This document shows, piece by piece, positions 18,797 through 49,729 of a stretch of 64,000 nucleotides of DNA. Location: NCBI RefSeq assembly GCF_041886205.1, contig NZ_CP169029.1. One strand, given 5' to 3'. The notes beneath the pieces were generated by a model. That model searched no databases. It was not told the DNA's origin and saw only the letters and a program-made list of their open reading frames with translations. The position numbers and the translations under genes were made by a program. Numbering within the stretch: position 1 is the first letter of the stretch; the number at the start of each line of letters is the position of its first letter. This DNA comes from Escherichia coli. GTDB lineage: Bacteria; Pseudomonadota; Gammaproteobacteria; Enterobacterales; Enterobacteriaceae.

Positions 18797-19090
<294 letters not shown>

Positions 19091-19288
19091 AATCGTGATC
19101 ATTTTTTGTTGACCACTACAAACATTTATGTTTTTTTATGCGAATGAAGTTATCCTTCCTTTCTGCCTGGTTGTCTCATTCATACAGATATCTGGCAGAC
19201 ATAACTTGTTGTGAAAAGTAGATGCTTACCGCATGTCTGATGCACTTTTGTATAAAGGCAAAGTATTTCAGCAAATGGAAATGATTAT

Positions 19289-21380: not shown

Positions 21381-22053
21381 CAAGCCTTTTTGCACCAACT
21401 GATGTACACAATCAGATTTCAGCCTGTCCGTAATAATTATATTTGATATTACATTAACGCTCTTTAACTGTAGGACAGCACAGCGTAAATTGTTGAATAG
21501 TTCATTTAAAAAATCATAAGGATAAAAAACCAACACTTAAAACATTGTTCTTTTTCAAGAACACATATTTAAATAAAATAACAAACCGCTACCAACTTTA
21601 AAACATTAAAAAAACTGTGAGAGATTACTCTGAAAAGAGTTCATAGCTTTTTAATAAACCATATAAAGTAAACAATACATATGTTAACCCCCCAGAAAAA
21701 ACGTGACAAGAACATAACACCATAAGCAGATACCATATACACGCACACCACCATAACGAATTGGTCACTGGTTCATGACAAACCGTTCATAATTGCTAAA
21801 AATATTAATACACCATCATATAGACTTTCATGTCTAATGAAAAAATATTTATACTCCAGAATAGCCACAACCTTTATAAAATTCAGCTCATTAGAATATA
21901 AATGCATATGCCAATGAACAGAATACATTCTCATCCTTATTGAGGAACATACTGCCTGAGAGAAAAATCATCACTCAGACTTTGAAATAACATTGTCGAA
22001 TTCATATTATACAAAAGGGGAGTCATTCCCCTTTTTTAGCTTAGGTACTCAGT

Positions 22054-22875: not shown

Positions 22876-22884
22876 GTCACCTCC

Positions 22885-23811
22885 TCAGATAAGCCCGGCG
22901 TCGCGCGCCAGGCGGCTCAGATTGTTATATCCCAGACGGGCGTAGGTCAGCGGATGGGCGATCGCCGGGTCCTGTTCAGCCTCCACCACCAGCCAACCGT
23001 GATAATCCTGCGTTTTCAGCAGTTGCATAATCGGCGGATAATCCACGCAGCCGTCACCCGGCACGGTAAACACGCCGCTCAGCACCGCGTCGAGGAAGCT
23101 GGTTTTACGGTTTTTGACGTCCGCCAGCACGTCGGCGCGCACATCTTTGCAGTGAACATGATTGATGCGCGATGCCCATCGCTGTGCCACCGCCAACGGA
23201 TCGGCCCCGGCAAAGGTCAGGTGGCCGGTATCCAGCAGTAAACCAACCTCCTCACCCGTGTGGAGCATCAGGTTGTCCACGTCTTGAGCGGACTCAATCA
23301 CCGTGCCCATATGATGGTGGTAAGCAATCTGTACCCCCTGTTGCTGCGTATAGCGGGCGAACACGGTGAGCTTCTCACCATACTCTTTCCAGCATTCCTG
23401 CGGGAAACGTGGGCGCAGGTGAACCGGCGTCTGCTGCTCACCGTGAATGCAGCCACTCACTTCCGCAAAAACCAGTACTTTTGCACCCAGCTCTCGCAGC
23501 AGCGTCAGATGCGACTGCACAGCAGCAATCTCGTCCTCTACACTGCGTTCCAACAGGCGGCCGGAATACCAGCCGGAGACCAACTGCAGGTCGTGGCGCT
23601 GCAAAATGGGGCCGAGCAGGCGCGCTTCTCGCGGGAATTTATTGCCCAGTTCGAAGCCGGCAAAACCGGCCTCTTTCCCTTCACTCAGGCAGGTCTCCAG
23701 AGATGTCTCCGCGCCCAGTGAAGGCAGATCATCGTTCGTCCACGTCAGCGGGTTGATGCCCAGTTGTACACTCATTGTCGTCTCCATTATGCGTGTCCGC
23801 GCTCGCGCCAC
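22885..23811 (-). CDS. iolE: Inosose dehydratase IolE (likely start MSVQLG at 23775)
   Basis: Xylose-isomerase-like TIM barrel; sequence GINPLTWTNDD typical of IolE. Confidence 0.8.
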   Translation of the reverse strand: MARARTRIMETTMSVQLGINPLTWTNDDLPSLGAETSLETCLSEGKEAGFAGFELGNKFPREARLLGPILQRHDLQLVSGWYSGRLLERSVEDEIAAVQSHLTLLRELGAKVLVFAEVSGCIHGEQQTPVHLRPRFPQECWKEYGEKLTVFARYTQQQGVQIAYHHHMGTVIESAQDVDNLMLHTGEEVGLLLDTGHLTFAGADPLAVAQRWASRINHVHCKDVRADVLADVKNRKTSFLDAVLSGVFTVPGDGCVDYPPIMQLLKTQDYHGWLVVEAEQDPAIAHPLTYARLGYNNLSRLARDAGLI

Positions 23812-25691
23812 CAGGCGATAAGCTGCAGGTAGTTGTCCCGGATGCGCGCCACCAACTGCGCATCGTCAATATCGTATTTCAGCCATGCGCGGGAGGCATC
23901 GCCAAACAGCGTGCGCCCCACGGCGAAGCCTTTCACCAGCGCCTGCCCCGCGGCAGCTTTGAAGTCGGCACGCAACTGTTCCGCCGGAGCATCCAGACCG
24001 AGGATCACCACGCCGCGGCAGTGCGGGTCCCGGCGCGCGATAATCTCGCTCAGTGCCGTCCAGCCTTCGGCGGAGAGCGGCGGCAGTTTCCACCAGTCGG
24101 GGTAAATGCCAAGGTTGTAGAAGCGGGAAATGGCACGCAGATAAAGTTCGTCACTGCGCGGCATAGTGGCGGGTAATATCACCTCCAGCAGCAGTTCATG
24201 TCCGGACTGACAGCAGGCGTGGTACACCTCGGCGATTTTCTGCTCCTGCTCCAGACGCAAGCCGTGGGCATCTTCCGGATGGAAAAAGACCAGGCACTTC
24301 ACCACATGCTCCTGCGGCCAACTGATAAGCTGGGTACCAATGTTACCGTGCTCCATCTCCAGCGGACGCGAGCCTGGCAGTTCAATGGGACGACCAATCC
24401 ACCACCCTTCGCCGGTAATGGCGTTCAGCGCATCCTGACCAAAGGTGCCATCGCACAGCAGGCCGGCTTTCCCCTCCAGCCCGGCAGAGCTTGCCGCCTC
24501 TCGGCTGGCCTGCAGGATCAGCTGTTTCAGCGCCGGAATACGCTTAAGCGACGCGCCGCACTGCAGCGCCATATCTTCCAGTTGACTGCGGTGATCGAAC
24601 GCCATCACGCACAGCTCCGGCCATTCGCGGCGGCGGGTGGTCACCCGGTGCAGATGGTTAAGACGCGGGTCAATGTCCGGGCGCGGAACGAGCGCGGCGC
24701 GGGAGAGGTAATCATCCAGCTCAATTTTGCTCGGCATCGCCGGTGCACAGCCGTGGCGCGAGACCACCAGCGCCCCACAGGCGTTGGCGTAGCGGCACGC
24801 CTGTTCCCAGCCCTCGTCGTTCAGGTAACCGCGCAGCAGGCCAGACATAAACGCATCTCCCGCGCCAAGGACGTTAAGCACCTCCACACGCACGCCGGTC
24901 ACCGTCAGGCCGTCATCCAGCCGAGGTGGAATGGCATCGGTATACACCGAACAGCCCAGCGCGCCGCGCTTGCAAACCAGTGTCGCCTTGCTGACGTGGC
25001 GCACCTGCGCCAGCGCCTGCAACGTATCGGTGCTGCCCCCCGCAATGTGAAACTCCTCTTCGGTGCCGACAACGACGTCGAAAAGGTGTAGCACCTCCTG
25101 AAGTTCACGGGTAACCTGTTCGGCAACGATAAAACGCGTTTCGCCGTCTCCTAGAGAGGTTAGTCCCCACAGCACTGGACGGTAGTCGATGTCCAGCACC
25201 GTGCGCACGCCGTGACGGCGGGCGTAATTCAGCGCCGTCAGCACCGCCTCGCGGGTCTGCGGGTGAGAAAGGTGAGTCCCGGTGATGGCAATACACCGTG
25301 CGGAGGCAATGTAGCTTTCGTCCACATCGCTGGCAGTAATCGCCATATCCGCGCAGTTATCGCGATAAAAAATCAGAGGAAAGGTGTCCCGGTCTTTAAT
25401 GCCGAGTAGCACCAGCGCCGTGAGGCGTTCTTTATCGGTGATCAGATGGCTGGTATCGCAGCCCACCTGGTTTAACTCTTCCCGCAGGAAGCGCCCCATA
25501 TGTTCATCGCCAACGCGCGCCAGCATTGACGAGCGTAAGCCCTGACGCGCGGTACCGTACGCCACGTTGCCGGACGAGCCGCCGAGATATTTGGCGAAGC
25601 TCGACACATCCTCCAGGCGGGCACCAATCTGCTGGCTGTAGAGGTCTACCGCCACGCGGCCCATGCATATCACATCAAACTGCTTTTCCAC
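23787..25691 (-). CDS. iolC: 5-dehydro-2-deoxygluconokinase IolC with C-terminal DUF2090/aldolase-like extension
   Basis: 634 aa; N-terminal PfkB-type sugar kinase (GAGDAF motif) plus ~300-aa C-terminal domain. Confidence 0.75.
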   Translation of the reverse strand: MEKQFDVICMGRVAVDLYSQQIGARLEDVSSFAKYLGGSSGNVAYGTARQGLRSSMLARVGDEHMGRFLREELNQVGCDTSHLITDKERLTALVLLGIKDRDTFPLIFYRDNCADMAITASDVDESYIASARCIAITGTHLSHPQTREAVLTALNYARRHGVRTVLDIDYRPVLWGLTSLGDGETRFIVAEQVTRELQEVLHLFDVVVGTEEEFHIAGGSTDTLQALAQVRHVSKATLVCKRGALGCSVYTDAIPPRLDDGLTVTGVRVEVLNVLGAGDAFMSGLLRGYLNDEGWEQACRYANACGALVVSRHGCAPAMPSKIELDDYLSRAALVPRPDIDPRLNHLHRVTTRRREWPELCVMAFDHRSQLEDMALQCGASLKRIPALKQLILQASREAASSAGLEGKAGLLCDGTFGQDALNAITGEGWWIGRPIELPGSRPLEMEHGNIGTQLISWPQEHVVKCLVFFHPEDAHGLRLEQEQKIAEVYHACCQSGHELLLEVILPATMPRSDELYLRAISRFYNLGIYPDWWKLPPLSAEGWTALSEIIARRDPHCRGVVILGLDAPAEQLRADFKAAAGQALVKGFAVGRTLFGDASRAWLKYDIDDAQLVARIRDNYLQLIAWWRERGHA

Positions 25692-25703
25692 GTTGAACCC
25701 TCT

Positions 25704-26837
25704 TCAGACAATGTCATTCACGTTCAGCCAGAGGCCCTGCTGGTGTGAGAGTGCGATGGCATCCAGCACACGCGAGACCTTCCAGCCCTCTTCGAAGTCC
25801 GGCCACATCGGTGCGTCGGTGGCGATGCCGTCTACCAGATCACGCACTTCCACCGTTTTTTGATCGTTAAAGCCGATACCATGACCTGCGCCCATGCAAA
25901 ACGCGCCGTAATCCGGGTGTGCCGGACCGACCAACAGTGTCCGGAACCCCTGACGGTTCACCGGATCATCATGCAGATAGAGCTTTATCTCTGCCATCCG
26001 CTCTTGGGTAAAACTGATCGCTCCTTTGGTACCAGTAATGACGTATGACAGCCCCATCTTGCGGCCGCAGGCGACACGGGAAGTTTCAATGACGCCCTGC
26101 GCCCCGCCCGCAAAGCGCACCATCGCGTGGGCCTGATCTTCATTTTCCACGGTGACCATTTCCGACGATCCGGCCTTTGCCGGACGTGCCGGTACCACAA
26201 TTTTCAGATCGCCACAAACCTGCTCAATCTCTCCCACAAGATACTGGGCCATATTGACGATATGTGCCGCCAGGTCACCCAGAGCCCCCAGTCCGGCGGT
26301 CTCTTTAAAACAGTGCCAGTGAATAGGGGAAAGCGGGTCGGCCATATAGTCTTCGTTGTGGGTTCCGTAGAAGTGGATCACCTCACCAATTTCGCCGCGC
26401 GCAATAATCTCTTTCGCCAACTGTGCCGTCGGGTTTTTCATGTAATTGAAACCCACCAGCGTTTTCACCCCTGCCCGCTTCGCAGCGTCGACCATCTCAC
26501 GCGCGTCGTGGGCATTCAGTGCCAGCGGCTTTTCCGAATAGACGTGCTTGCCGTGGCGGATCGCCTCCAGCGCCATCTCTTTGTGAAGATGGTTAGGGGA
26601 GCAAATATCCACCACATCAATGGCCGGGTCGACCACGAGCACCCGCCAGTCTCCGGTTGAGCGATTGAAGCCAAACGCCTGCGCGCGTTCTGCCGCCAGC
26701 GCCGGATTCACCTCAGCCACCATCTCGCGCACCAGTTTGCCGCGCAGATTGAACACCGTCGGTGCCTGGGCATAGGCAATGGCATGCGCCTTGCCAATAT
26801 ACCCGGTGCCAATCAATCCAATACGAACCTCTTTCAT
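25704..26837 (-). CDS. Gfo/Idh/MocA-family oxidoreductase (second inositol dehydrogenase-like enzyme)
   Basis: Rossmann motif IGLIGTGYIGKAH; ~377 aa from MKEVRIG. Confidence 0.75.
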   Translation of the reverse strand: MKEVRIGLIGTGYIGKAHAIAYAQAPTVFNLRGKLVREMVAEVNPALAAERAQAFGFNRSTGDWRVLVVDPAIDVVDICSPNHLHKEMALEAIRHGKHVYSEKPLALNAHDAREMVDAAKRAGVKTLVGFNYMKNPTAQLAKEIIARGEIGEVIHFYGTHNEDYMADPLSPIHWHCFKETAGLGALGDLAAHIVNMAQYLVGEIEQVCGDLKIVVPARPAKAGSSEMVTVENEDQAHAMVRFAGGAQGVIETSRVACGRKMGLSYVITGTKGAISFTQERMAEIKLYLHDDPVNRQGFRTLLVGPAHPDYGAFCMGAGHGIGFNDQKTVEVRDLVDGIATDAPMWPDFEEGWKVSRVLDAIALSHQQGLWLNVNDIV

Positions 26838-26845
26838 CGTGATCC

Positions 26846-27874
26846 TCACAGTGCGCCGCGACGGCTCTTGGCATAGGTGTCGAATGCCACCGCCAGAACG
26901 ATAATTAATCCGGTGATAATTTGCTGGTAGTAGGCCGAGACGTTCATCAGTACCAGGCCATTAATCAGAATGCCCATGATGATGGAGCCGATGATAGTGC
27001 CGCCGATGCGCCCATATCCCCCCATCAACGACGTGCCGCCAATAACCACCGAGGCAATAACACGCAGCTCAAAGGAGATCCCGGCAACCGCCTCAGCGCT
27101 CCCCAGACGAGCGCTCAGGATGAAGCCCGCCAGCCCCGCCAGACAGCCAATCAGCACATAGACGCTAACCAGCACACGCTTCACGTTTACCCCAGCCAGA
27201 CGTGCCGCCTCCGGGTTGCCACCGATGGCATAGACGAAGCGCCCCCAACGGGTTTTATGCAGTGCCAGATAACCACCAATGGCAACGATGGCGAAGATCC
27301 AGATCGGAATGGAGATGCCGAGCAATTCCCCTCGTCCCCACCAGCGATAACCCTGATCGAAGCCGGCAATCGGCGCACCGTCGTTAATCACGAGCGTCAG
27401 ACCACGCCAGATGGTCATCCCGCCAAGGGTGACGATGAACGGTGGTAGGCGCAGGCGGGTGACGCCCAGACCGTGCAGGAAGCCAATCGCTGTACCCATG
27501 GTCAGACAAATCCCCAGCCCAATCAGCCAGCTCATACCGCCCCAAGCGTTCGGATCGACTGTGGTGAAATTGTCGCCTTTGATCACGTACGCCGCTGTCA
27601 TGGCGCACACTGCCAGAATAGAGCCCACGGAGAGGTCGATCCCAGCGGTCAGAATGACGAAGGTCATCCCCACGGCCATGATCCCGTAGATGGAGACTTC
27701 GGTCAGGATGTTGAAAATATTGCGTTCAGAGAAAAAATTACTGTTCTGCGACTGAAAGAAGATCAGCAGCAGGATCATGAAAATCAGTACCCCGAAGCGC
27801 TCGAAGAAGGCAATGGGATCGATGCGTCCGGCGCGTTTTACCGGGACCTGCGTTTTAGGAATCATCTGCGTCAT
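26846..27874 (-). CDS. Sugar ABC transporter permease (ribose/monosaccharide type)
   Basis: 342 aa, multiple hydrophobic segments, start overlaps upstream gene. Confidence 0.8.
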   Translation of the reverse strand: MTQMIPKTQVPVKRAGRIDPIAFFERFGVLIFMILLLIFFQSQNSNFFSERNIFNILTEVSIYGIMAVGMTFVILTAGIDLSVGSILAVCAMTAAYVIKGDNFTTVDPNAWGGMSWLIGLGICLTMGTAIGFLHGLGVTRLRLPPFIVTLGGMTIWRGLTLVINDGAPIAGFDQGYRWWGRGELLGISIPIWIFAIVAIGGYLALHKTRWGRFVYAIGGNPEAARLAGVNVKRVLVSVYVLIGCLAGLAGFILSARLGSAEAVAGISFELRVIASVVIGGTSLMGGYGRIGGTIIGSIIMGILINGLVLMNVSAYYQQIITGLIIVLAVAFDTYAKSRRGAL

Positions 27875-27885
27875 GAGAAACTCCG

Positions 27886-29433
27886 TTATGCCGCGTTCAG
27901 GGCGTTGTGGTTGATAGCCATCATCGTCATCAGCCGTTCTTCGTTAGCGTCGTCACCGTGGATCTCGCCAGTTAACCGGCCTTCACTAAGGGTGATGATC
28001 CGGTCAGACACCGCCATCACTTCAGGCAGATCGGAGGAGATCACGATCACCGCCACGCCCTTTTTCGCCATATCAAACAGCACCTGGTGCACTTCCGATT
28101 TGGTTCCAACGTCGATGCCACGTGTCGGCTCATCGACAATCAACACCCGTGGATTGAGCGCCATGCAGCGCGCGAGGATAACTTTCTGCTGGTTGCCGCC
28201 AGAGAGCTTACGCACCTCCTGCGTGCTGTTGACCATTTTGATCTGCAGCGCCTGGCGGTAGGACTCAATCAGGTCGTCCTCTTTGCGGGTATTCACAAAC
28301 CAGCGCCACTGCAACAGCGAGGAGAGGCAGGAGAGCGACAGGTTGTCGCGAATCGACAGACCCAGCACCGCCCCCTCTTTTTTGCGATCTTCCGGCACCA
28401 GCGCCAGCCCTTGCTCCAGCGCATAAAGTGGGTCACGCGGCTGGTACGGCACGCCGTCCAGCTCAAAGCTGCCGGTGGTAAAGGCGTCGGCGCCAAACAG
28501 GCAGCGCGCTACCTCAGTACGACCAGCCCCCACCAGCCCAGCGATACCCAGAACTTCCCCTGCATGGACGTGAAAACTGATGTCATGCAGGGCGATGCCG
28601 TGTGGATCCAGCGGCGGTTTTTCCCGGCTTAACCCCTTCACCGACAAACGGACAGGTTTGTCTTCATGGTGGGTTTCGCTGGCAGGGCGGCGGTTAAAGG
28701 CCACATCACGCCCTACCATCAGGCGGATCAACTGCTCTACGTTCGTCTCCGTCACTGCGCCGGTGCCGGTGAAACGGCCATCCTGGAAAACGGTGAAACG
28801 ATCGCAAAGCTGGAAAACTTCATGCAGACGGTGAGTAACGTAAATAATGCTCACGCCGCGGTTTTTAAGCTCCCGCACCACGCGGTGCAGGCTTTCCACC
28901 TCGCTGTCACTCAGGGCGGCGGAGGGTTCATCCATGATGATCAGCCTGGCATTGAGGGTCAGCGCCCGGGCAATCTCCACCATCTGCTGCTGGGCCACGC
29001 TCAGACGGGCGACTGGCGTGGTGGGTGCGACATTCAGTTGCAGATAATCGAGAATCACCTGCGCTTCCTGATTGACCGCTTTTTCGTCGACGATCAGGTT
29101 ACGTTTACGCGGTTCGCGTCCGAGAAACATGTTTTCCGCAACGGTCATATTGGGCAGCAGGTTGAATTCCTGATAGATGGTGATAATGCCCTTGTTCTGC
29201 CGTTCTACCGGGGAGTCGTCCACCGGCAGCGTTTCGCCATTGAACCAGATCTCCCCGCGCGTTTGTGGCTGTGCGCCCGCGAGTGCCTTCAACAGCGTGG
29301 ATTTCCCAGCGCCGTTTTCGCCCAGCAAAGCGTGAATTTCACCCGTGCCGACGGTGAGCTGGGCGCTGCTCAGCGCCCATACGCCGGAAAAGCTTTTTGC
29401 CAGGTCGGTTACTTTCAGTAAGGGTTGCGACAT
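27886..29433 (-). CDS. Sugar ABC transporter ATP-binding protein (duplicated ABC domains)
   Basis: 515 aa; Walker A GENGAGKST, signature LSGGNQQK. Confidence 0.85.
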   Translation of the reverse strand: MSQPLLKVTDLAKSFSGVWALSSAQLTVGTGEIHALLGENGAGKSTLLKALAGAQPQTRGEIWFNGETLPVDDSPVERQNKGIITIYQEFNLLPNMTVAENMFLGREPRKRNLIVDEKAVNQEAQVILDYLQLNVAPTTPVARLSVAQQQMVEIARALTLNARLIIMDEPSAALSDSEVESLHRVVRELKNRGVSIIYVTHRLHEVFQLCDRFTVFQDGRFTGTGAVTETNVEQLIRLMVGRDVAFNRRPASETHHEDKPVRLSVKGLSREKPPLDPHGIALHDISFHVHAGEVLGIAGLVGAGRTEVARCLFGADAFTTGSFELDGVPYQPRDPLYALEQGLALVPEDRKKEGAVLGLSIRDNLSLSCLSSLLQWRWFVNTRKEDDLIESYRQALQIKMVNSTQEVRKLSGGNQQKVILARCMALNPRVLIVDEPTRGIDVGTKSEVHQVLFDMAKKGVAVIVISSDLPEVMAVSDRIITLSEGRLTGEIHGDDANEERLMTMMAINHNALNAA

Positions 29434-29484
29434 CAGCCTGCTCCTTATTTATGGGGAGCCGCCCGTACGGCGGCTCCAGACAAA

Positions 29485-30414
29485 TCAGTTACCGGCCTCA
29501 GCAATACGCTCAGCCTGTTGCAGGTTCTCTTTGGTGATCAGCGTCGGCGGATAGTCCGCACCGGTGATAGTTTTTTTCTCACGCACGTTAGCCACCAGTT
29601 GGCTCATCGCCGTGGTCACCGCAAAGCCGGGACGCTGATCCGCCGTAACCGCCAGCCAGCCGTCGCGCACGCGGGCCAGTGCTTCCGGTACCGCATCAAA
29701 ACCGGTGACCAGGATTTCACCCGGTTTCACACCCTGACTCTGCAGCGCTTCAATCGCCCCCAGCGCCATATCATCGTTGGCAGAGAGGATCACCTGAGGA
29801 CGTTTTGGCAGCGACGGCAAAACGCTTTCGACAATGCGCATCCCTTCCGAGCGCATCCAGTTGCCGGTCTGATCGGCGACGATCTTGTACATATCCCCGC
29901 CAGCCTTCAGGCTGTCGCGGATCCCTTTGGTGCGTTCAATGTTGGAGGAGGAACCCGGTTGACCGGTCAACAGAATGATCTCCGCGCCGTTGGGGAATTT
30001 GGTTTTGACGAAGTCGCCAATCGCCTGGCCGCCCTTGTAGTTGTTGGCACCAAAGTGCGGCACTTTTTTCTGGCTGTCGACAGAGCGGTCAAGCGTAACG
30101 ACCGGCAGCTTCGTATCCTGAATTTCATCTACCGCACTGGAGACCGCGTTCACATCGTTCGGGGAGACAATAAAGCCCTGCGCACCACGGGTGATGGCGT
30201 TTTCCAGGTCAGCCACCTGCTTCGGTGAGCTGCCCTGACCGTCCAGTACCTGAAGTTTCACCCCCATCTCTTTTGCGGCTTTCACCGCCGTGCGCTGCAT
30301 GTGAACTTCAAACGGCATGGCCAGGTTTGGCGTACTGAAAACAATTTGCTCGTTTTCGGCTATGGCGGCCCCGGATGTCATGGCGATTAGGGCGGCTAAG
30401 ATCAGTTTTTTCAT
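29485..30414 (-). CDS. Periplasmic sugar-binding protein of the ABC importer (putative inositol-binding)
   Basis: Signal peptide MKKLILAALIAMTSGAAIA; ATG at 30412-30414; the longer upstream ORF extension is rejected. Confidence 0.8.
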   Translation of the reverse strand: MKKLILAALIAMTSGAAIAENEQIVFSTPNLAMPFEVHMQRTAVKAAKEMGVKLQVLDGQGSSPKQVADLENAITRGAQGFIVSPNDVNAVSSAVDEIQDTKLPVVTLDRSVDSQKKVPHFGANNYKGGQAIGDFVKTKFPNGAEIILLTGQPGSSSNIERTKGIRDSLKAGGDMYKIVADQTGNWMRSEGMRIVESVLPSLPKRPQVILSANDDMALGAIEALQSQGVKPGEILVTGFDAVPEALARVRDGWLAVTADQRPGFAVTTAMSQLVANVREKKTITGADYPPTLITKENLQQAERIAEAGN

Positions 30415-30445
30415 TATTATGTCTCTCTGTGTAGGGTTGTTGTGT

Positions 30446-31432
30446 TTAGAGGACGATCTCACGCTGGCAACGCAGTGATTCCAGCGCTTTATCCGCGAGG
30501 TACAGCGCACGTTCACCATCATCGCCGCTGCAATCAGGCACCGCTTCGCCGCGCAGAACCGCAACAAAGTGCTCCCATTCCGCTGCGTAAGCGGATTTGT
30601 AGCGTTGCAGGAAGAAGTGTTCCGGCAGCGCGCTGGTGCAACCCTGTTTGCCGTAGTGCTGCACCTGGTTTTCAAGGATATTGCCCGCGCACAGCAGCCC
30701 TTCGGAACCGTGTAGCTCCAGGCGCTGGTCGTAGCCGTATGAAGAGCGGCGACTGTTGACGATGGTCGCCATCGCGCCGGAGGCATATTTCAGAACGATA
30801 AATGCGGTGTCGATATCTCCCGCTTCGCCAATCGCCGGATCCACCAGATTGCTGCCCTGGGCATACACCGACACCGGCTCTTCACCCATGATGAAGCGTG
30901 CCATGTCAAAGTCGTGGATGGTCATATCACGGAACATGCCGCCGGAAACACGCACGTACACCGCAGGCGGTGGAGACGGATCGCGGGAGATGATCAGCAG
31001 TGATTCCGGTTTGCCGATACGCCCGGCCTGAGTGTCGGTTTTCACGCGACGGAACTGTGGGTCAAAGCGGCGGTTAAAACCGATAAACAGCGGTACGTCA
31101 TACTCTTTGACCACTTTCAGGCAGTCGCGTACGCGGGCAAGATCAAGGTGTACCGGTTTTTCACAGAAAATGGCTTTGCCGTAACGGGCGGCCATTTCAA
31201 TCAGATCCGCGTGGGTGTCGGTCGCGGAGGCGATCAATACGGCATGAACGTTCGGGTCGGTCATCGCCTCATCCAGGCTCTGCTGGCGCGCCTGATACTG
31301 TGTCGCGAGACGCGTGGCGAACTCCTGATTCGGGTCTACCACAGACCAGAGCGTGGTCGCACTATGGCTGGCGATGTTAGCTGCATGTACCTGGCCAATT
31401 CGGCCAGCGCCCAGTAAAGCAATGTTAAACAT
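30446..31432 (-). CDS. iolG: myo-Inositol 2-dehydrogenase IolG (Gfo/Idh/MocA family)
   Basis: 328 aa; N-terminal Rossmann motif ALLGAGRIGQVHA. Confidence 0.8.
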   Translation of the reverse strand: MFNIALLGAGRIGQVHAANIASHSATTLWSVVDPNQEFATRLATQYQARQQSLDEAMTDPNVHAVLIASATDTHADLIEMAARYGKAIFCEKPVHLDLARVRDCLKVVKEYDVPLFIGFNRRFDPQFRRVKTDTQAGRIGKPESLLIISRDPSPPPAVYVRVSGGMFRDMTIHDFDMARFIMGEEPVSVYAQGSNLVDPAIGEAGDIDTAFIVLKYASGAMATIVNSRRSSYGYDQRLELHGSEGLLCAGNILENQVQHYGKQGCTSALPEHFFLQRYKSAYAAEWEHFVAVLRGEAVPDCSGDDGERALYLADKALESLRCQREIVL

Positions 31433-31626
31433 AACGGCTCCCGGTGTTGATGAATGCGGTGAACTAACGACACTACAAATAAAACATTTATTTCATTTTT
31501 ATAAATAGTGAAAATTATATTTTGAGTGACAGTTAACACTTTTGAGATGTATTAGATAAATTTTGTTATCAATCTCACAACGCCGAGGAAGATATGTCCC
31601 TCCATTACAAGGGGGGGAGGGAATAA

Positions 31627-31656
31627 AAACTGTACCATCCCCTCTCCCGTTGGGAG
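31627..31656 (-). terminator. Perfect 14-bp-stem palindrome, probable terminator after iolD
   Basis: CCATCCCCTCTCCC-GTT-GGGAGAGGGGATGG; T-rich run follows on the minus strand. Confidence 0.5.
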
Positions 31657-31716
31657 AGGGGATGGGTGAGAGGAAAAAAGAAAAATGAAATGAAAATTTC
31701 GTTACGACAGGAAAAC

Positions 31717-33642
31717 TCAATACTGACGAGCTTTTTTCACCTGAGCCTGTGTTTGCTCGGCGGCCTGGCGCACTGCTGGCGACTCTGCCACCTGTGCGTT
31801 GCCGGTTCGCCACCATGACGCGTAATCATGGGTCATGGTTTTTGGTAGCACTTTGATGTCGAGGAGCGTCGGTCCCGGGTGAGCGCGCGAGGCTTCCAGC
31901 GCCGCCAGCAGGCTTTTCTCATTATGTACCCGCCATGCGCGGCAACCGTAGCTTTCCGCGTTTTGCGCAAAATCGACCTTCACCAACGGCCCGTCAAGCT
32001 GACCTGTTTTCGGATTACGGTAACGATTTTCTGTGCCAAAACTCCCCATTCCGTGCCCCATCTGCAGGTTATTAATGCAGCCAAAGCTGGCGTTATCAAA
32101 CAGCAGAATGGTGACCTTAATTCCCTCCTGTACGGCAGTTTGCAGCTCTGAGTGCAGCATCATGTACGAACCATCGCCTACCATGGCATACACCGGCTGC
32201 TGAGGTTTTGCCAGCTTCGCACCAATAGCCGCTGCGACCTCATACCCCATGCAGGAGTAACCATACTCCAGATGGTAACTGTCAGGCGTTTTAACCTGCC
32301 AGAGGCGTTGCAAATCCCCTGGCAGCGATCCGGCCGCCCCCACCACAATGGCGTTATCCTCAATATGCTGGTTAATGAGCCCCAACACCCGCGTCTGGGT
32401 CAGGTGTGTGTTGAGCGTTTCACCGTATTCCATTAGCTGTGCATCAAGGTGCCCTGCCACTTCGGGAACGTCGTCAGGATGCCACTGGCGTTCCCACAGT
32501 CGACAGCATTCATCGTGCCAAGCGGATTTCGCATGGGCAATCGCCTCCCCCCAGCCACTACGATAATCTTTCAGTGCGTGGGTCAACGCTGTCAGACCAG
32601 TTCGGGCATCGGCAATGAGCGCGGTGGCATCCAGCTTCAAGGAGTCAAACTCAGCCACGTTCAGCAGCAGGAACTCGACGTCGGGATGAGAAAAGAGCGC
32701 CTTAGAGCCGGTAGTAAAATCCGTCAGGCGCGTGCCGATGCCAATCACTAAGTCAGCCTGCGGCGCAAGCTGGTTGGCAGCCATTCCGCCCGTCACGCCC
32801 ACCCCGCCCAGATTAAGCGGGTGGTCACTTACCAGCGCCCCCTTACCGGCCTGGGTTTCGGCAAACGGCAATTGCAGCACTTCAACAAATTCCCGTAACG
32901 CCTCATGCGCACCGGAGTAACGCACGCCACCGCCGCACACCACCAGTGGACGGCGCTTGCGGGAAATCAATGCATGAGCCTGCGCCAGTCGCTGCGGGTC
33001 AGGCGGACGGCGTTCAATATGATGCACCCGACGCGCAAAGAAACTCAGGGGGTAATCCCAGGCCTCCCCCTGCACATCCTGAGGTAGGCAAATGGTCACC
33101 GCCCCTGTATTTGCGGGGTCAGTAAGCGTTCGCATCGCACTTAACATCGCGCTCATAAGCTGTTCAGGACGGTTGATGCGGTCCCAGTAGCGGGAAACCG
33201 GGCGGAAGCAATCGTTGGTACTGATGCTGAGATCGTGATACTGCTCGATCTGCTGCAACACGGGGTCAGGCTGGCGGCAGGCGTAGATATCCCCTGGCAG
33301 TAGCAGCAGTGGAATGCGGTTCGCCGTGGCCGTCGCTGCCGCCGTCACCATATTGGCAGCGCCAGGCCCAACGGATGAGGTGACAGCAAAAATACGCTGA
33401 CGGCGATGCTGTTTGGCGAATCCCGTCGCCATATGGGCAATCCCCTGCTCGTTACAGCCTTGCATCACCTGCAGATGACCAGGATCCTGCTCCAGCGCCT
33501 GGCCGATACCGAGCACGTTACCGTGCCCAAAGATCGTTGCCACGCCCTCCACAAAGGGCGTTTCTTTACCATCAACGCTAACATATTGTTGGTTAAGAAA
33601 TCTGACCAGAGCCTGGGCCATAGTCATACGTTCGGTTTGCAT
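31717..33642 (-). CDS. iolD: 3D-(3,5/4)-trihydroxycyclohexane-1,2-dione hydrolase IolD (TPP-dependent)
   Basis: 641 aa; thiamine-diphosphate enzyme motifs (GDGSYMM). Confidence 0.85.
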
Positions 33643-33653
33643 AAAACCCCCTG

Positions 33654-35159
33654 TCAGCCCAGAGTCGGCATGGAGAACGCTGCACCTGTCTCCTGCTGCA
33701 TTTCCGGCCAGCGTGCAGTGATGGTTTTCATTCGGGTGTAGAAACGCACGCCATCGTTCCCGTGAACATTGAGCGCGCCAAAAATGGAACGTTTCCAGCC
33801 ACCGAAACAGTGGAATGCCATTGGCACCGGGATCGGCACGTTGACCCCCACCATACCCGCCTGCACCTCTTCACAAAAGCGGCGTGCGCAGCCACCGTCA
33901 CGGGTGAAAATGGCCGAGCCATTACCATATTCGTGTCGGTTAATCAGATCCACCGCGCTGGCGTAATCTGCTACGCGCACCACAGAAAGCACCGGTCCGA
34001 AAATTTCTTCTTTATAGATGGTCATCTCCGGGGTGACGTTATCGAACAGAGTCGGCCCAACGAAATAGCCCTGCTCGTGCCCTTTCACGCTGAGGCCACG
34101 CCCGTCCACACGCAGGTTAGCCCCCTGAGCTTCGCCACTGTCGATATAGCCCAACACTTTGCTGCGGTGTGCGGCGGAGATCAGCGGCCCCATCTCGTTT
34201 TCTGGCGTCTGGTTCAGGCCAGGTCCGACGCGCAGCGAAGCGATCTTTTTTTCCAGCCGGGCGCAGAGTTCATCAGCCGTTTTATCGCCAACCGCCACCA
34301 CCACGGAAAGCGCCATGCAGCGTTCTCCTGCCGCACCATAAGCTGCGCCCATTATGGCGTTTGTCGCCATATCCATATCGGCATCCGGCATTAAAATGCA
34401 GTGGTTTTTCGCACCGCCGAGCGCCTGACAGCGCTTACCGTGGGCGGACGCAGTCAGGTACATGTATTCGGCAATCGGTGTTGAACCGACAAAACTGACG
34501 GCCTGCACGCGCGGGTCGGTCAGGAGCACATCAACGGATTCTTTATCGCCCTGCACCACGTTGAATACGCCGTCCGGCAGGCCTGCCTCTTTCAGCAGTT
34601 TCGCCAGCGCGAGCGCCAGAGACGGATCTTTTTCCGACGGTTTCAGCACGAAGGTGTTGCCTGTCGCCAGAGCTATCGGGAACATCCACATTGGCACCAT
34701 CGCCGGGAAGTTAAACGGCGTGATCCCGGCGCAGACCCCGAGCGGCTGCATCAGTGAGTGGCTGTCGACACCTGTGCCAACGTTCGCAGAGTGTTCGCCT
34801 TTTTGCAGATGTGGGATGCCGCAGGCGAATTCTACCACTTCCAGACCACGGGTCAGTTCACCTACTGCATCTGAGAAGACCTTACCGTGTTCTTCACTGA
34901 TAATACGGGCCAGACGCACCATATTCTCTTCAAGCAACGCTTTGAAGCGGAACATCACACGCGCGCGCTTGAGTGGAGCAAAACGTGCCCACGCGGGAAA
35001 CGCCAACTGTGCTGCGGCAATCGCCTGTTCGGTTTCCTGTGCCGTACTCATCACCACCTGGCGAATCTGCTCGCCAGTGGCCGGGTTGAAGATAGCCTGA
35101 ATGCGCTGGCCTGAACCGGTGACACATTCGCCGTGAATAAAATTCGCTACCGTCTCCAT
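33654..35159 (-). CDS. iolA: Methylmalonate-semialdehyde dehydrogenase IolA/MmsA
   Basis: 501 aa aldehyde dehydrogenase with catalytic Cys context and FTGST-like motif. Confidence 0.85.
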
Positions 35160-35449
35160 CCTTAACCTCTCGCTGTTGATACGTGACTGTTACCTGAACG
35201 TTATGTACTGAACACTATATATGAAACAAATATTCCATTTTAAGTTGAAATAAAATAAATAATGATTATTGTGATCAAGGATGGATTTTTATGTGAACAG
35301 CCAGCATCACTGACTCAGCCTGAGCTATTAGGAGTTTCGGGCGAGGAAATGACTGAAGCTTCTGTTTCATTTTTGCTGCCAGGTGGATGGCCAACATTTA
35401 AAAGACGCGGTTTTGCGTTTAGAATCATGAGACTGGATAGGGGGATAAC

Positions 35450-36310
35450 ATGACGACAGCAACCAGCCTGAACGAACTACAAAAGCAAATCCGCGATCGC
35501 TACGATAGCCTGAGCAAAAGGCTGCAGCAGGTCTCCCGCTATGTACTGGATAATACGAACAGTGTCGCGTTTGATACGGTTGCGGTCATAGCCGAACGTG
35601 CCGATGTTCCACCCTCTACACTGATTCGTTTTGCCAATGCCTTTGACTTCACCGGCTTCAACGAAATGAAACAGTTATTTCGTATGCACCTGGTGGAGGA
35701 AACCGCCAGCTACAGCGATCGTGCGCGACTGTTCCGCGAAATGGAGAGCGAAGCCGTACCTGAAACGCCGCTCGATATTTTGCAGGAGTTCGCCAGTTCG
35801 AACTCGCAGGCGCTGCAGCAGTTGGCTGCCCGCGCCGAACCGGAGATGCTGGAGCACGCCGTACAACTACTGGCCTACGCCGACACCATTTACATCGCCG
35901 GATTACGCAGATCCTTTAGCATTGCTGCTTATCTTACCTATGCTTTAAGCCACCTAGAGTGCCGCCCTATTCTGCTTGACGGGATGGGCGGCATGCTGCG
36001 CGAACAGATCAGCCGTATTAAGGCGTGCGACATTGTGGTGTCGATCAGTTTCTCGCCGTACGCGGAAGAAACGGTGATGGTCAGCAAAACCGCCGCCAGC
36101 GTCGGCGCTCGGCAGATTGTGATTACGGATAGCCAGATCAGCCCACTGGCAACGTTCAGTGATCTCTGCTTTGTGGTGAAAGAGGCTCAGGTGGACGCAT
36201 TTCGGTCTCAGTCGGCAACATTGTGTCTGGTGCAGTCGTTAGTGGTCGCGCTAGCTTACCGTTTAGGAGATAAAAAACATAATAATACCCAGGAAAACAG
36301 TAACCAATAA
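35450..36310 (+). CDS. iolR: RpiR/MurR-family transcriptional regulator IolR (HTH + SIS domain)
   Basis: 286 aa; divergent from iolA. Confidence 0.75.
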   Translation: MTTATSLNELQKQIRDRYDSLSKRLQQVSRYVLDNTNSVAFDTVAVIAERADVPPSTLIRFANAFDFTGFNEMKQLFRMHLVEETASYSDRARLFREMESEAVPETPLDILQEFASSNSQALQQLAARAEPEMLEHAVQLLAYADTIYIAGLRRSFSIAAYLTYALSHLECRPILLDGMGGMLREQISRIKACDIVVSISFSPYAEETVMVSKTAASVGARQIVITDSQISPLATFSDLCFVVKEAQVDAFRSQSATLCLVQSLVVALAYRLGDKKHNNTQENSNQ

Positions 36311-36504
36311 TAACCAATGAACTCCTCCCCCGAGTCCATATAAGAGTAAATGATTCGGTGCCAGTAGCGATACAGACTTCAGATTGAATATCAACTGTAC
36401 TGCTATCTCCCTAAAAGGTCATGCCCCATGTGAGCGTACAACGAGAGCCTTAATCCTTAATAGCGAAGAAGATTTCTCTAGTAGGTGGTAATGTAACCCA
36501 GATA

Positions 36505-36898
36505 TAACGGCTTCTTTAAACAGTTTATTTACCATCGTTTTCTTACCTAGCAGGCGCTGAAGTTCTTTAATTTTATTCATGGCGGCAGCAAGTTCAGAGG
36601 CCGGAATACCCTGTTCTTCGGCTGTCACAGTAGTGAAGCTTCCTTCAAGGTAATGATACGCCAGAGAAATAACTGGCTGGCAGCCACACCGTGTTGCCGG
36701 GCAACAAGGGAGACCGTCATTCCCGGTTCAAAACTCTGCTGAACAATAGCGATCTTTTCCTGTGTAGTACGCCGTCTGCGTTTCTCCGGTCCTAAGACAT
36801 CAATCATCTGCTCTCCAATGACTAGTCTAAAAACTAGTATTAAGACTATCACTTATTTAAGTGATACTGGTTGTCTGGAGATTCAGGGGGCCAGTCTA
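36505..36898 (-). mobile_element. IS2 remnant (left end with partial orfA/insC)
   Basis: Terminal sequence TAGACTGGCCCCCTGAATCTCCAGACAACCAGTATCACTTAAATAAGTGATAGTCTTAATACTAG (reverse complement) and orfA translation [50 protein letters not shown]; homology is lost after ~KEAV. Confidence 0.65.
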
Positions 36899-37328
36899 TA
36901 CACTACCTCAGGTAGATGATGAGATCAGATACAGGGATCAACTGACGGTGAGCGCAGGCCCGCGAGTGCCCTGATTTAGCGCTGGTTTTGCTTTCCCATC
37001 GAAGGGCCCATACATCATCACGCCCGCGAAACAGTCGACAAAATAACGCAACTTTCTCATCCGTGGATAATACGGAAACGCACTGCACAGGACTCTGCGG
37101 TTTACGTCACCATTCAATCCCATAAGCTTCAAGTTATGTTTGCCCTCAGTGCAGCTAATTCATCACTGTCAGATTTATGAACCATAGTCGTTACCTGTAT
37201 CCGATCCACTGAGGCACCACGGCAGAAATTCGGGTCCCCTACACTGATGACAAAGCCGCCCTCTTCTGCCTATTAACTCAAGCACCTCCCAACAACTTAC
37301 AGAAACTTAATCCTAATACAACTGTAAT

Positions 37329-43693: not shown

Positions 43694-45511
43694 ATGTATA
43701 ATTTTATCACTATAATGTATGATGTCTTTTCATGTTTTGGTGTTCTGGCTAAAAACCAGAATACCCGTGACATCCGAAATATTAAAAATTTTTCCTCACA
43801 TCAATATTCACTGGGCGACATGTTTGATGAATTAATAAACATTATTGATAAAGAACAAGTATTGAGTACAGAACAACGAAAAGTTATATTTAGGAGATAT
43901 GAAGATCTCTATGTTAAGCTAATGCACTATTCTGTTTTTACAGACCAAACACATCAAATAATAAAACAAAAATATTTTAATGACATTGTACCAATGATTC
44001 TCGCACTCGACATCAGGAACACATATCGCCCGGATAATGAGATGGCATTTTACTATCATATTCATTCTTTTCTCACTCAGATACCGGATAATGAGGATGA
44101 TATATATCATGCTGCAAGGACATATCTGCGAAATTACGTTAAGTTATGTTTATCCGGATACACACCAGCGAATGCGCATTTCAAAGATATCTTTGATGGC
44201 GTATATGAATTCATTCGTAATATTCGCAAAAACAGTACACCAGGAAAAACAAAACTTATCGCAACTATCAACACATGCAAAGAAACCTGTAAACATCTGC
44301 TTTATTTAAGTAATGAAGACAAGGAAAAAATAATTTCTGACTTAGATAAAGTTCAGGTTGCATGTTATTATCTCACTATATTACTGGCTTTCGAAAGACG
44401 AACTTCATTAACAAGCACCCTGGCAACTTTATATAAAATGCTGATAAGCGAAAGAGAAGTTTCAGAATATGAATGCCAGTTATTATATTTAACCAACCCA
44501 ATAGATGTAATGAATATACTGAACAAATACATATATTACTTTCCTAATGAAAACTCACCATTTTATACACTGAAAATTGACAGTGCATTATCGTGGGATG
44601 CCATTGACGCAATACGAGACTATAGTATTTCTGATATTTATCTTTATCCTGAACAAAAAACAATAAATTGTGTCGTTGAGATTGAAAACATTGTCTTTGG
44701 CGGTTACATTTATACATTGAACAACGGCGTCACATTACAAAACATAGAAAACACTTTAAAAGATTCTTCATGCCATTATGTCTTAAATGGCTATACAGAA
44801 TTTGTTAACTGTTTGATACAACTTACTTCAGGAAAGACTGAAAGTGTTCATCGCACCATCAATAAACTGAACTATGAGAAATTACCTTTTGGATTTATCA
44901 TTGCCGCGTTTGCTATACTAAAGATAGCATTTAAAATAAAATTCAGTAAAAATCATGTAAATATCCGAGCATTATTAAATGACATCAATTATTTTATGAC
45001 TTATCAGGGCGAGTCCATTAACCTTATTTCACTGGATCACGAATACCCAGAGTCCTGTCTTCAAAATGACACAAACACATATTTATTAGGAAGAGTAATA
45101 TTTCTGTATAACTCAATGATTTATAAGTTCATAAACTGTCAGGAACATGAAACCAATAACATTCACTCAGCTATGATAAATAACCTATTACAGGAAGTTG
45201 ATATAGCCCTTGGTAAAATAAATAACATTATAGACAGCAGAAACATATCAGCCCCCCATGAACTGGCAAATATTCTTACCCGCGAAAAAATACTTACAAC
45301 ACGGGAAAAAAAAGGAAACCTGATAAGCCTGTTTGATGGATTCACTTTATTCCATTGTGTTGGAATGATAACCTTTCTTATCCATTATCTCAGAACACCT
45401 GAAGAAAAAGTTGAAAATATATTTATGTTATATGGTGCAGATAAAAACAATAAACTACGCAGAAGACTGATTTATGACGCACTAGGAATAATTCAGTCTC
45501 AGCAGGAGTGA
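43694..45511 (+). CDS. Hypothetical protein, 605 aa, AT-rich orphan in the int-alpA variable slot
   Basis: Long uninterrupted ORF; very low GC versus flanks; no motif I can recognise. Confidence 0.5.
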   Translation: MYNFITIMYDVFSCFGVLAKNQNTRDIRNIKNFSSHQYSLGDMFDELINIIDKEQVLSTEQRKVIFRRYEDLYVKLMHYSVFTDQTHQIIKQKYFNDIVPMILALDIRNTYRPDNEMAFYYHIHSFLTQIPDNEDDIYHAARTYLRNYVKLCLSGYTPANAHFKDIFDGVYEFIRNIRKNSTPGKTKLIATINTCKETCKHLLYLSNEDKEKIISDLDKVQVACYYLTILLAFERRTSLTSTLATLYKMLISEREVSEYECQLLYLTNPIDVMNILNKYIYYFPNENSPFYTLKIDSALSWDAIDAIRDYSISDIYLYPEQKTINCVVEIENIVFGGYIYTLNNGVTLQNIENTLKDSSCHYVLNGYTEFVNCLIQLTSGKTESVHRTINKLNYEKLPFGFIIAAFAILKIAFKIKFSKNHVNIRALLNDINYFMTYQGESINLISLDHEYPESCLQNDTNTYLLGRVIFLYNSMIYKFINCQEHETNNIHSAMINNLLQEVDIALGKINNIIDSRNISAPHELANILTREKILTTREKKGNLISLFDGFTLFHCVGMITFLIHYLRTPEEKVENIFMLYGADKNNKLRRRLIYDALGIIQSQQE

Positions 45512-46901: not shown

Positions 46902-47061
46902 ACGCTAATTCCCGTCACTCTGGTATGCCATCCAGTATGCCATTAGTCTCTCGCTTCACTAAGAATACATTAGATAATATCGGACAACAAAAAGTGTAAT
47001 ACATTGTTTATAATGAAATTATATAACACCCCTGGATTAAGTCAGATTTATTTCAGGCGGT

Positions 47062-47522
47062 CCCCCTCACCGCCATATTTAAAGAAGAGCTCGTACGAAA
47101 GTACGGGCTTTTTTTTCGTATATTGCACACACCGGGGGGATGAGAATCCCCGACCGGGGGTCGACAACTGGCGGCAGCCAGTTGGACAGACCGTGAACGC
47201 AGTGAGCGGGCTGCCCGCAGGGCGAGCGAAGCGAGTCAATCCCCCCCTCACCGCCATATTTAAAGAAGAGCTCGTACGAAAGTACGGGCTTTTTTTTTCG
47301 TATATTGCACACACCGGGGGGATGAGAATCCCCGACCGGGGGTCGACAACTGGCGACAGCCAGTTGGACAGACCGTGAACGCAGTGAGCGGGCTGCCCGC
47401 AGGGCGAGCGAAGCGAGTCAATCCCCCCCTCACCGCCATATTTAAAGAAGAGCTCGTACGAAAGTACGGGCTTTTTTTCGTGTATTGCACACACCGGGGG
47501 GATGAGAATCCCCGACCGGGAT
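47062..47522 (+). repeat. Tandem ~180-bp repeats (about 2.6 copies), each beginning with a tRNA-Ser(GGA)-like 3'-end copy (attachment core)
   Basis: Unit starts at about 47062, 47243 and 47424; copies 2 and 3 carry AATCCCCCCCTCACCGCCA; each unit also contains a hairpin plus T-run (GCTCGTACGAAAGTACGGGCTTTTTTT) and further stem-loops. Confidence 0.7.
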
Positions 47523-47528
47523 ACTTAG

Positions 47529-48215
47529 TTAATGCAACGGTTCACTCTTTGTCGCCGCGACTAATGGGCGAATTTTGTCACGAGTCTCCCAGACCGGAGG
47601 GATTTCCTCCAATTTAGTGACAGAAGCTCGTACAAAAGGCACTCGTGCAAGAGTCATAATCGTATCCAACCAACGGTCACGAATAATGCGATCCGCCCTT
47701 TCATGACTCGGGTCATCCAGCTCAATAACACAGACTATTTTATTGTTCTTCTTTGAAACCAGAACATAATCCATTGCCATGCCATTATAAATTGCAAAGA
47801 AACGCTTTCTTTCTTCTTCGCTAAACTCAGGTTGTTCTGGATAGTTGAGCAAGCGCCCCAGAGAGACCTGGCAATGGATATGACAATAATGTCCAAACCA
47901 TTTCTCCAGATTATCGAAATACATTTTTTCACAACGCGTGATTAACCACTCTTTTCCTTCCAATAAAATACCTTCGGCAACCATTCCCTGAAATAACTCA
48001 TCTCGTTCTTGCCAACGAGAGTCACGATAGGTTTTCTGCGGTATATAGGTCCTTGTCGACGACTTAGCAGCAGGGGAAGTTGCAGATGAAGGGACTGGTT
48101 GCGATTTAGCGATGATTACCGATGAGGCAACTTTTCGGAGTGTCAATTTTCTGGCAACAGCAAAACCGGCGACAAATGCAATTGTCAAACAAGTTACAAA
48201 AGCCATAAAGCTCAT
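47529..48215 (-). CDS. DUF2726-like membrane-anchored protein (restriction-endonuclease-like fold)
   Basis: 228 aa; N-terminal TM helix; C-terminal motif KIVCVIELDDPSHERADRIIRDRWLD. Confidence 0.45.
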   Translation of the reverse strand: MSFMAFVTCLTIAFVAGFAVARKLTLRKVASSVIIAKSQPVPSSATSPAAKSSTRTYIPQKTYRDSRWQERDELFQGMVAEGILLEGKEWLITRCEKMYFDNLEKWFGHYCHIHCQVSLGRLLNYPEQPEFSEEERKRFFAIYNGMAMDYVLVSKKNNKIVCVIELDDPSHERADRIIRDRWLDTIMTLARVPFVRASVTKLEEIPPVWETRDKIRPLVAATKSEPLH

Positions 48216-48766
48216 AATTAATTTTCACTTATCCATGTTGATTATATTTCATTACCAATGTTACTCGCTGAAGCGTGTTACATGCCAACAATGCAACGAT
48301 CAATATATAGTTAGTATCATGTTTTGATTATTACAACCATCCCTATTTTGCCATTGCAGCTTGCCTTCCACAAAAAAAATAACAACAAACAATATTAGCC
48401 AAAGAATTAATTAAGATTAACCTTGCATTTATAATATTATCCCTAAAGAATAAATCAGAGGAATATATTCGGTGTTAATCAGTCAGTCAAATTATGGCCC
48501 ATTGTTGATTAAACCTCATAAGCAAAATTGGCACCAGATCTCCTGTACAGGTTGAATGGCCGAAAAAAGATAGGCAGATGCTCGCTTTTTTGGCTTCTGG
48601 AAGAAAAACTCTCCGCACTGGCAGTATTACACTGGTCTGATGCTATGACGAAAAATGCCTGGTAAGAGTATCTAAACCAGACTCCAGTTCAGCTTATCAA
48701 CACGCTCAAAGTCGCCCCCCTGAACGCTAACCTGAAGTTAAAGTCTTTGCTGTTAATGAAATAAAA

Positions 48767-48790
48767 CAAAGCCCGGTTCGCCCGGGCTCT
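48767..48790 (-). terminator. Rho-independent terminator of phoH
   Basis: Minus-strand GCCCGGGCGAACCGGGC hairpin followed by TTTGTTTT. Confidence 0.55.
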
Positions 48791-48805
48791 GCACCGATAA
48801 CACAC

Positions 48806-49729
48806 TTAACTGTATGCATGCAGCGTACGTTGGCAAAGTGCCGAACGTACGCAATCCTCTTTACCGAACCGGACGATCCCAACCATTTCATCTTCTTCGA
48901 AACGTTCCAGCGCGTCACTTAATCCGGAGCACACGCCGCGAGGCAAATCGCATTGCGTGATATCACCGTTGACGATAACTGTCACGTTCTCCCCGAGGCG
49001 GGTTAAAAACATTTTCATTTGCGCGGCAGTCACATTCTGCGCCTCGTCAAGAATGACGACTGCATTTTCAAAGGTACGTCCACGCATATAGGCGAAAGGC
49101 GCAATTTCCACCTTCCCTATTTCCGGTCGCAGGCAGTACTGCATAAAGGAAGCCCCTAAGCGCCGGACCAGCACGTCGTAAACCGGGCGAAAATAGGGAG
49201 CAAACTTTTCTGCGATATCTCCAGGTAAGAAGCCAAGATCTTCATCGGCTTGCAGAACTGGACGGGTGACGATAATCCTGTCGACATCCTTATGTATCAG
49301 GGCCTCTGCCGCTTTTGCTGCGCTGATCCAGGTTTTTCCGCACCCGGCTTCGCCCGTGGCGAATATCAGCTGCTTACTCTCAATAGCCTTCAGATAGTGC
49401 AATTGCGCTTCATTACGCGCGAGGATGGGCGAAGTATCGCGACTGTCGCGGGCCATACCAATGGCTTCTACGCCGCTCATTTGCACAAGCGAGGTGACCG
49501 ATTCTTCTTCACGCTGCTTATGGCTGCGCGAATCCCGTCTCAGCACACGTTTTGCCTCGCGACGAGCTTTGATCACTGCTTTTTGTCTTCCCATGGAGAG
49601 CACCTTGAGTTGTTTGTATTCATCACACGCGCCGTTGGCAGCGCGATTATGCGCACGAACATCAGAGGGTTGGCTTCCTTGTAAGCCATAGTTTGCTTTT
49701 GGATAAAATGCCGAAAAACGGCTACGCAC
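48806..49729 (-). CDS. phoH: PhoH (phosphate-starvation-inducible ATPase); start codon uncertain
   Basis: PhoH/YbeZ motifs (GEAGCGKT, VILDEAQN); synteny with efeB. Confidence 0.85.
   Translation of the reverse strand: MRSRFSAFYPKANYGLQGSQPSDVRAHNRAANGACDEYKQLKVLSMGRQKAVIKARREAKRVLRRDSRSHKQREEESVTSLVQMSGVEAIGMARDSRDTSPILARNEAQLHYLKAIESKQLIFATGEAGCGKTWISAAKAAEALIHKDVDRIIVTRPVLQADEDLGFLPGDIAEKFAPYFRPVYDVLVRRLGASFMQYCLRPEIGKVEIAPFAYMRGRTFENAVVILDEAQNVTAAQMKMFLTRLGENVTVIVNGDITQCDLPRGVCSGLSDALERFEEDEMVGIVRFGKEDCVRSALCQRTLHAYS

Follow-up and report, generated by a model that had tools for sequence, protein, structure and literature searches.

A native tRNA-linked repeat array of Escherichia coli serX, probably displaced from its tRNA gene by a site-specifically integrated island

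In Escherichia coli K-12 there are 22 tRNA-linked repeats (TLRs) at 10 loci, in each of which 18–19 nt exactly repeat the 3′ end of the upstream tRNA or rRNA (PMC8144298). TLRs were first noticed at tyrT, and the members in tRNA operons have no function assigned to them in the literature (PMC8144298; PMC3318445) [for the work of Egan & Landy 1978, Bosl & Kersten 1991 and Rudd 1999, see the summary in PMC8144298]. Transcription together with the tRNA and processing to a discrete RNA have been demonstrated for the tyrT and rrn members only (PMC8144298; PMC3318445). Three TLRs located 3′ of 5S rRNA genes (rrA, rrB and rrF) are members of the same broad class, bind Hfq and CsrA, and are made by read-through of the terminator followed by processing (PMC8144298); their body sequence is unlike that of the serX units described below. 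The probability that tRNA-operon TLRs bind CsrA is less than 0.01 according to the predictor in PMC8144298.

The other closely related systems are the genomic islands of the serX and serW genes: SRL-PAI of Shigella flexneri, OI-43/OI-48 (the tellurite-resistance and adherence island) and SpLE1 of E. coli O157:H7, and the uropathogenic PAI-serX. These islands lie between copies of a 14-bp direct repeat, which for OI-43/48 and SRL-PAI was published as TGGCGGTGAGGGGG, together with the layout of OI-48 next to ycdU (PMC3064760). Integrase-dependent excision and integration have been demonstrated for SRL-PAI and OI-43/48 (PMC3064760; PMC7545054). In the islands of this type, the ycdU/phoH side has the integrase gene beside a cryptic tRNA 3′ end, and the intact serX is at the other end.

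The window considered here (the whole 64-kb stretch of E. coli DNA that was analysed) contains one tandem array reported by Tandem Repeats Finder, at 47062–47520, with a period of 182, 2.5 copies, 98% matches and a score of 888. A second repeat search of the window recovered the same repeat families in the same interval. The tandem units of ~180 bp that had been described in a sequence-only reading of this DNA were thereby borne out, but not the position at which they were said to begin: 46902 is the boundary set by the integrase start, the following 160 nt are unique island DNA rather than repeat, and the repeats begin at 47062 (Table 1).

Table 1. Positions of the integrase gene, the att site, the repeat units and the right-hand flanking gene in the window
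Feature	Positions	Strand	Basis or content
Tyrosine recombinase (integrase), 400 aa	45699-46901	-	ORF; NCBIfam NF007246 domain, 185.9 bits
P arm (integrase-side arm of att site)	46902-47061		Promoter-like site, GTATGCCA repeats, GGCGGT
14-bp att core CCCCCTCACCGCCA (attR)	47062-47075	+	Equal to the final 14 nt of serX; directly after island DNA
Repeat unit 1	47062-47242	+	181 nt; att core, serX terminator, TLR/RtT-like body
Repeat unit 2	47243-47424	+	182 nt; identical to unit 1 at 180/182 aligned positions
Repeat unit 3, truncated	47425-47520	+	96 nt; ends ...CCCCGACCGGG, then unrelated DNA
Terminator hairpin + T-run	47081-47116 (unit 1), 47262-47298 (unit 2), 47444-47478 (unit 3)	+	Predicted fold
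DUF2726-family gene	47529-48215	-	ORF; annotated DUF2726 in matching genomes

Exact searches of the 64-kb window located the 19-mer AATCCCCCCCTCACCGCCA at two positions, 47238 and 47420, and the 14-mer CCCCCTCACCGCCA at three, 47062, 47243 and 47425, and nowhere else; all of these are on the + strand. The recurrence of the 19-mer, with a shorter version (14 nt) at the start of unit 1, was therefore as the sequence-only reading had described it, and its match of the string to the 3′ end of serX/serW was correct: AATCCCCCCCTCACCGCCA is the final 19 nt of both K-12 serX and K-12 serW, beginning midway through the T-loop and ending with the CCA. The body of a tRNA had been found to be absent upstream, and ARAGORN detected no tRNA in the 64-kb window. 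The hairpin followed by a run of T residues, also claimed for each unit, sits straight after the CCA in all three units of the array, and is the native intrinsic terminator of serX/serW. Almost the same terminator follows K-12 serW, with two base differences in the stem, and there is no TLR there. Weak Rfam matches to MicC and to the threonine leader over the terminators were dismissed as look-alikes that scored far below the gathering scores.

The units can be identified with the known tRNA-linked repeats (RtT in Rfam, RF00391) and would be members of the same family as the tyrT repeats, to which a likeness had been suspected. The RtT model matched unit 1 at 47120–47256 (38.2 bits, E 7.7e-5) and unit 2 at 47302–47438 (38.6 bits, E ~7e-5), in both cases below the gathering score of 45; it is the GAGAAT/GGGGGTC variant in the units of the window that lowers their score to 38 bits. 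In K-12 MG1655, three complete units of the same type and a fourth, partial one lie between serX and ycdU; on the RtT model two of the complete units reach 46.3 bits, which exceeds the gathering score of 45, and the third scores 36.1. The K-12 serX array is orthologous to that of the window (178–179 of 181–182 aligned positions match between their units), and the NCBI pipeline labels the units “RtT sRNA” in genomes that share the arrangement of the window. When units from the window, K-12 serX and K-12 tyrT were aligned, the body of the serX-type unit proved to be homologous to that of the tyrT unit. The body has runs of G and of C that match the T-stem of the tRNA, and these segments co-vary with the tRNA: GGGGGG/CCCC/GGGG/CCCCCCC for Ser and GGGGAAGG/CTTC/AAGG/CCTTCCCC for Tyr. 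Just as described TLRs are tandem units of ~180 bp that lie 3′ of a tRNA gene and end in 18–19 nt of its 3′ end, the copies at 47238 and 47420 consist of the 3′-terminal nucleotides of the linked tRNA. In K-12, in strain 14EC017 and in other genera, the array is directly 3′ of a tRNA gene in the same orientation. The window itself contains no tRNA and differs from other TLR loci in that an island, at least 47 kb long, parts its array from the tRNA; insertion of this island would account for the separation.

The distribution of such units was investigated by scanning one genome per species for the 19-mer where it is not preceded by G, which yielded 94 stretches (L009–L102) from roughly 25–30 named enterobacterial genera. 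Nearly all of these are TLRs, and several are in tandem with a period of ~180 bp. A tRNA-Ser(GGA) gene is nearby in the same orientation at 25 of 28 loci that were checked, and in most of these the TLR follows it directly. Two tandem tRNA-Ser(GGA) genes enclose the TLRs in Siccibacter (L017) and Erwinia (L019), comparable to the unit in the tyrT–tyrV spacer. In Trabulsiella odontotermitis (L093, reverse strand, ~12320–12391), an internal deletion within a TLR joins GATGAGAAC directly to GATCC...CCA; the TLRs of this contig, which contains N bases, have no tRNA nearby.

An alignment of 85 distinct units, to which a structure was assigned by hand, was used to analyse covariation; the units had been chosen by their invariant 3′ 19-mer, and for this reason the closing stem carries no information. 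Two helices, in columns 81–100 and 103–130, stay paired through many double changes: both sides have changed at 12 pairs, and there are 116 such cells compared with 25.8 in shuffled alignments (none of 500 shuffles reached 116). The proportion of paired cells is 96%, compared with 35–63% when the 3′ partners are slid by 1–3 columns. A closing stem proposed by RNAalifold on alignment A2 was rejected as an artefact of G-runs and C-runs. Thus, the Ser-type TLR is a conserved structured element, in line with its status in Rfam. This bears on the suggestion of a small protein encoded in the array, comparable to the tpr ORF of the tyrT repeats. Mechanically derived ORFs of 76–148 aa do cross the array on both strands, but these owe their existence to the repetition of the unit and their lengths shift with copy number, and the variation between genera preserves the base pairs of the helices rather than a reading frame, which leaves a coding role exceedingly improbable.

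The array appears to be native chromosomal DNA 3′ of serX rather than a product of the island. Strain 14EC017, which does not have the island, has the gene order ghrA, serX, 2.5 units, DUF2726, phoH, and its array stops at the same base as that of the window (...CCCCGACCGGG|ATACTTAG) and is followed by the same flank. Since the array end is identical, the window can be read as a 14EC017-type allele with the island inserted between serX and the first terminator. The DUF2726 gene would then be part of the chromosomal backbone of this allele, outside both the repeat and the island; the protein annotated as DUF2726 gave no match in PADLOC or NCBIfam scans. The DUF2726 allele occurs both with and without the island. 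The segment that contains this gene (47521–48805) takes the place of a block of ~11 kb in K-12 (ycdU-dgcT-pgaABCD), which extends from the serX repeats to phoH, and the motif ACCGGG lies just before the end of the array in both the DUF2726 and the ycdU alleles. Farther to the right, there is a strong match to Rfam Ysr251 (RF02855; 188.5 bits) at 48811–49004, antisense to phoH and within the 3′ end of that gene, and K-12 has this also.

The integrase gene is at the serX-distal end of the island. It reads leftward into the island, with its start codon at 46901 and the repeats to its right, i.e., it is transcribed away from them, as had been claimed. The P arm includes a predicted sigma-70-like promoter for int (– strand, 47045–47018) and direct repeats of GTATGCCA at 46923 and 46935, which also occur twice in the serX-side arm of strain ZYB62 and are candidate arm-type binding sites for the integrase. 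At the border with the array, GGCGGT (47056–47061) is inverted with respect to ACCGCC of the core, across a 7-nt spacer (CCCCCTC). These repeats and this inversion would fit a site used by a tyrosine recombinase. An 11-nt inverted repeat (CTCGCTTCACT/AGCGAAGCGAG, 91% complementary; 46950–46960 versus 47225–47235 and 47407–47417) ties the integrase-side arm of the island to each TLR body, and may be due to chance. Between the integrase and an IS1 remnant is an ORF of 605 aa (43694–45511, +), which is kept in the module of O157:H7 and ZYB62 and had no match in Pfam, NCBIfam or PADLOC scans.

Both ends of the island can be seen in ZYB62, which shares the integrase module and much of the cargo with the window; its serX is ~70 kb leftward of the integrase gene. 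Its left junction reads serX...CCCCCTCACCGCCA|gattacaagcg and its right junction ...caggcggt|CCCCCTCACCGCCA|tatttaaag, so that attL and attR have exactly CCCCCTCACCGCCA in common. This core is the reverse complement of the published repeat TGGCGGTGAGGGGG. ZYB62 matches the window at 100% over 5584–25000 (76% of a 25-kb query) and at 99.3% over 88% of 25000–49900. In strain C11 the integrase is 100% identical and the serX junction is ~100 kb from it. The integrase and its arm are present in 1267 of 5426 complete E. coli genomes. In O157:H7, whose copies are 99.3% identical in nucleotide sequence and belong to a P4-family integrase module, the same module adjoins ycdU, in agreement with the layout published for OI-48 (PMC3064760). 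The left part of the window is still island DNA, and the expectation that the complete tRNA and the other end of the island lie beyond its left edge agrees with the distances in ZYB62 and C11 (for the present strain, by extrapolation from them). Comparison with these related genomes suggests that the window contains an island of the OI-48/SpLE1/SRL-PAI type integrated in the final 14 bp of serX. It differs from the described serX/serW islands in its cargo, which comprises myo-inositol catabolism, type I restriction-modification and IS66 in place of ter/ure/iha or resistance genes, and in its right chromosomal flank, which is the DUF2726 allele in place of ycdU. The myo-inositol (iol) cluster and an ABC transporter are located at ~25000–37000; in many other E. 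coli genomes the same cluster is found in a region without this integrase module.

The sequence-only reading had regarded the repeats as an attachment-site array. This did not hold, as the same units follow serX in K-12 and 14EC017, which are free of the island, and only the first 14-nt copy coincides with a junction. A block of identity that extends from the T-loop to the CCA is of the kind left by integrases that target the T-loop. If the array had arisen by repeated integration and excision at serX, then each unit would be an attR scar. Every unit does have the 14-bp core and 5 tRNA nucleotides followed by native downstream sequence, the 19-nt block resembles the footprint of such an integrase, and the homology of TLR bodies across different tRNAs makes an ancient mobile origin of the family possible. 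Against this, the same units are found in strains without the island, and many genera have them 3′ of tRNA-Ser(GGA), where their helices are conserved and base changes compensate one another. The body of the unit has no similarity to the arms of the present island, and units within a strain are 98–100% identical and share strain-specific variants, a pattern that tandem duplication and homogenisation would produce, unlike independent scars. An origin of the units as scars is thus very unlikely, and the reading of the array as native serX sequence is preferred.

A related proposal concerns the present rather than the past, i.e., that the serX/serW integrase can use the TLR copies as secondary attB sites, or is diverted by them as decoys. 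In its favour, a TLR copy is identical to the attB of serX across the 14-bp core, over 5 nt to the left and over at least 45 nt to the right. Occupancy was examined using a chimera of the 3′ part of a TLR and the serX-side arm of the island as a megablast query against 5,426 genomes at ≥80% coverage, a search which strongly diverged serX-side arms would escape. At this coverage, an island of this type joined to a TLR copy instead of to the tRNA was found in none of the 5,426 genomes, and among the matches listed all junctions start exactly at the 19-mer of the tRNA, under an annotated tRNA-Ser. Possibly, the integrase may need tRNA nucleotides farther to the left; alternatively, islands located between 182-bp direct repeats may be lost rapidly by homologous recombination, so that instability could also explain the absence of such junctions. 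At three loci in other genera (L033, L070 and L096), the TLR 19-mer is followed by DNA other than the terminator; inspection of these loci revealed no integrase and nothing resembling an island. Use of the copies as secondary attB sites or decoys seems highly improbable. In practice, the array would not be an attachment-site array, and only the 14-nt copy at 47062 appears to be the junction with the island.

The number of units differs between strains, a point which the sequence-only reading had thought worth checking. In flanks that extend from the integrase to DUF2726, the array has 0.5, 1.5 or 2.5 units in different genomes; next to the ycdU flank, there are 0.4 units in ZYB62 and O157:H7 and 3.4 in K-12 (an overall span of 0.4 to 3.4 units). 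The motif GAGAAT is present in all three units of the window, and GAGAAG in all units of K-12 and 14EC017. That a variant is shared by all units of one array indicates a probable homogenisation within the array, and the shared variants would fit gene conversion, or unequal recombination, inside an array. In the scan of species, the non-tRNA 19-mer had few matches among Escherichia genomes, which suggests that some E. coli lineages are without a full TLR unit after serX, like ZYB62 and O157:H7, which retain only a partial unit.

The explanation to which a probability of about 0.9 is assigned, as judged from sequence comparison, is that this is the native TLR array of serX, displaced by an island of the OI-48/SpLE1/SRL-PAI type that integrated in the final 14 bp of the gene. 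A unit comprises the serX terminator, then ~105 nt of structured body, and finally 19 nt that repeat the tRNA 3′ end; the array would grow, shrink and become homogenised when units recombine unequally by homology, or by slippage between them. In strains without the island, transcription would read through the serX terminator into the units, and their RNA would be trimmed in the same way as tRNA 3′ ends. Site-specific integration of the island would leave the intact tRNA at the far left, and the displaced 3′ flank (the 14-bp core and the whole TLR array) would adjoin the integrase gene as attR. In the present strain, the array would thus have lost its link to the serX promoter, and it is probably silent or transcribed only incidentally.

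It is possible, though unlikely, that TLR arrays serve a role which is under selection and connected with the tRNA 3′ end, and this estimate is for the two forms of the idea taken together. Processed RNAs could mimic the tRNA 3′ end and so titrate end-processing or binding factors, or the DNA of the array could buffer against integrases directed at tRNA genes, or be a decoy for them. If there were such a role, it would change once insertion of the island had separated the array from the serX promoter.

The locus combines two things that were already known, a serX TLR array and the attR of a serX-type island, and the current understanding is unchanged by these results. What has been documented is that, in the search of 5,426 genomes, no near-identical pseudo-attB copy was found to be occupied. 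For annotation, the lesson is that repeats of a tRNA 3′ end beside an integrase gene need not be products of an island: here, they would be displaced backbone. For the TLR family, strains in which the array is joined to serX and those in which it is detached offer a natural comparison.
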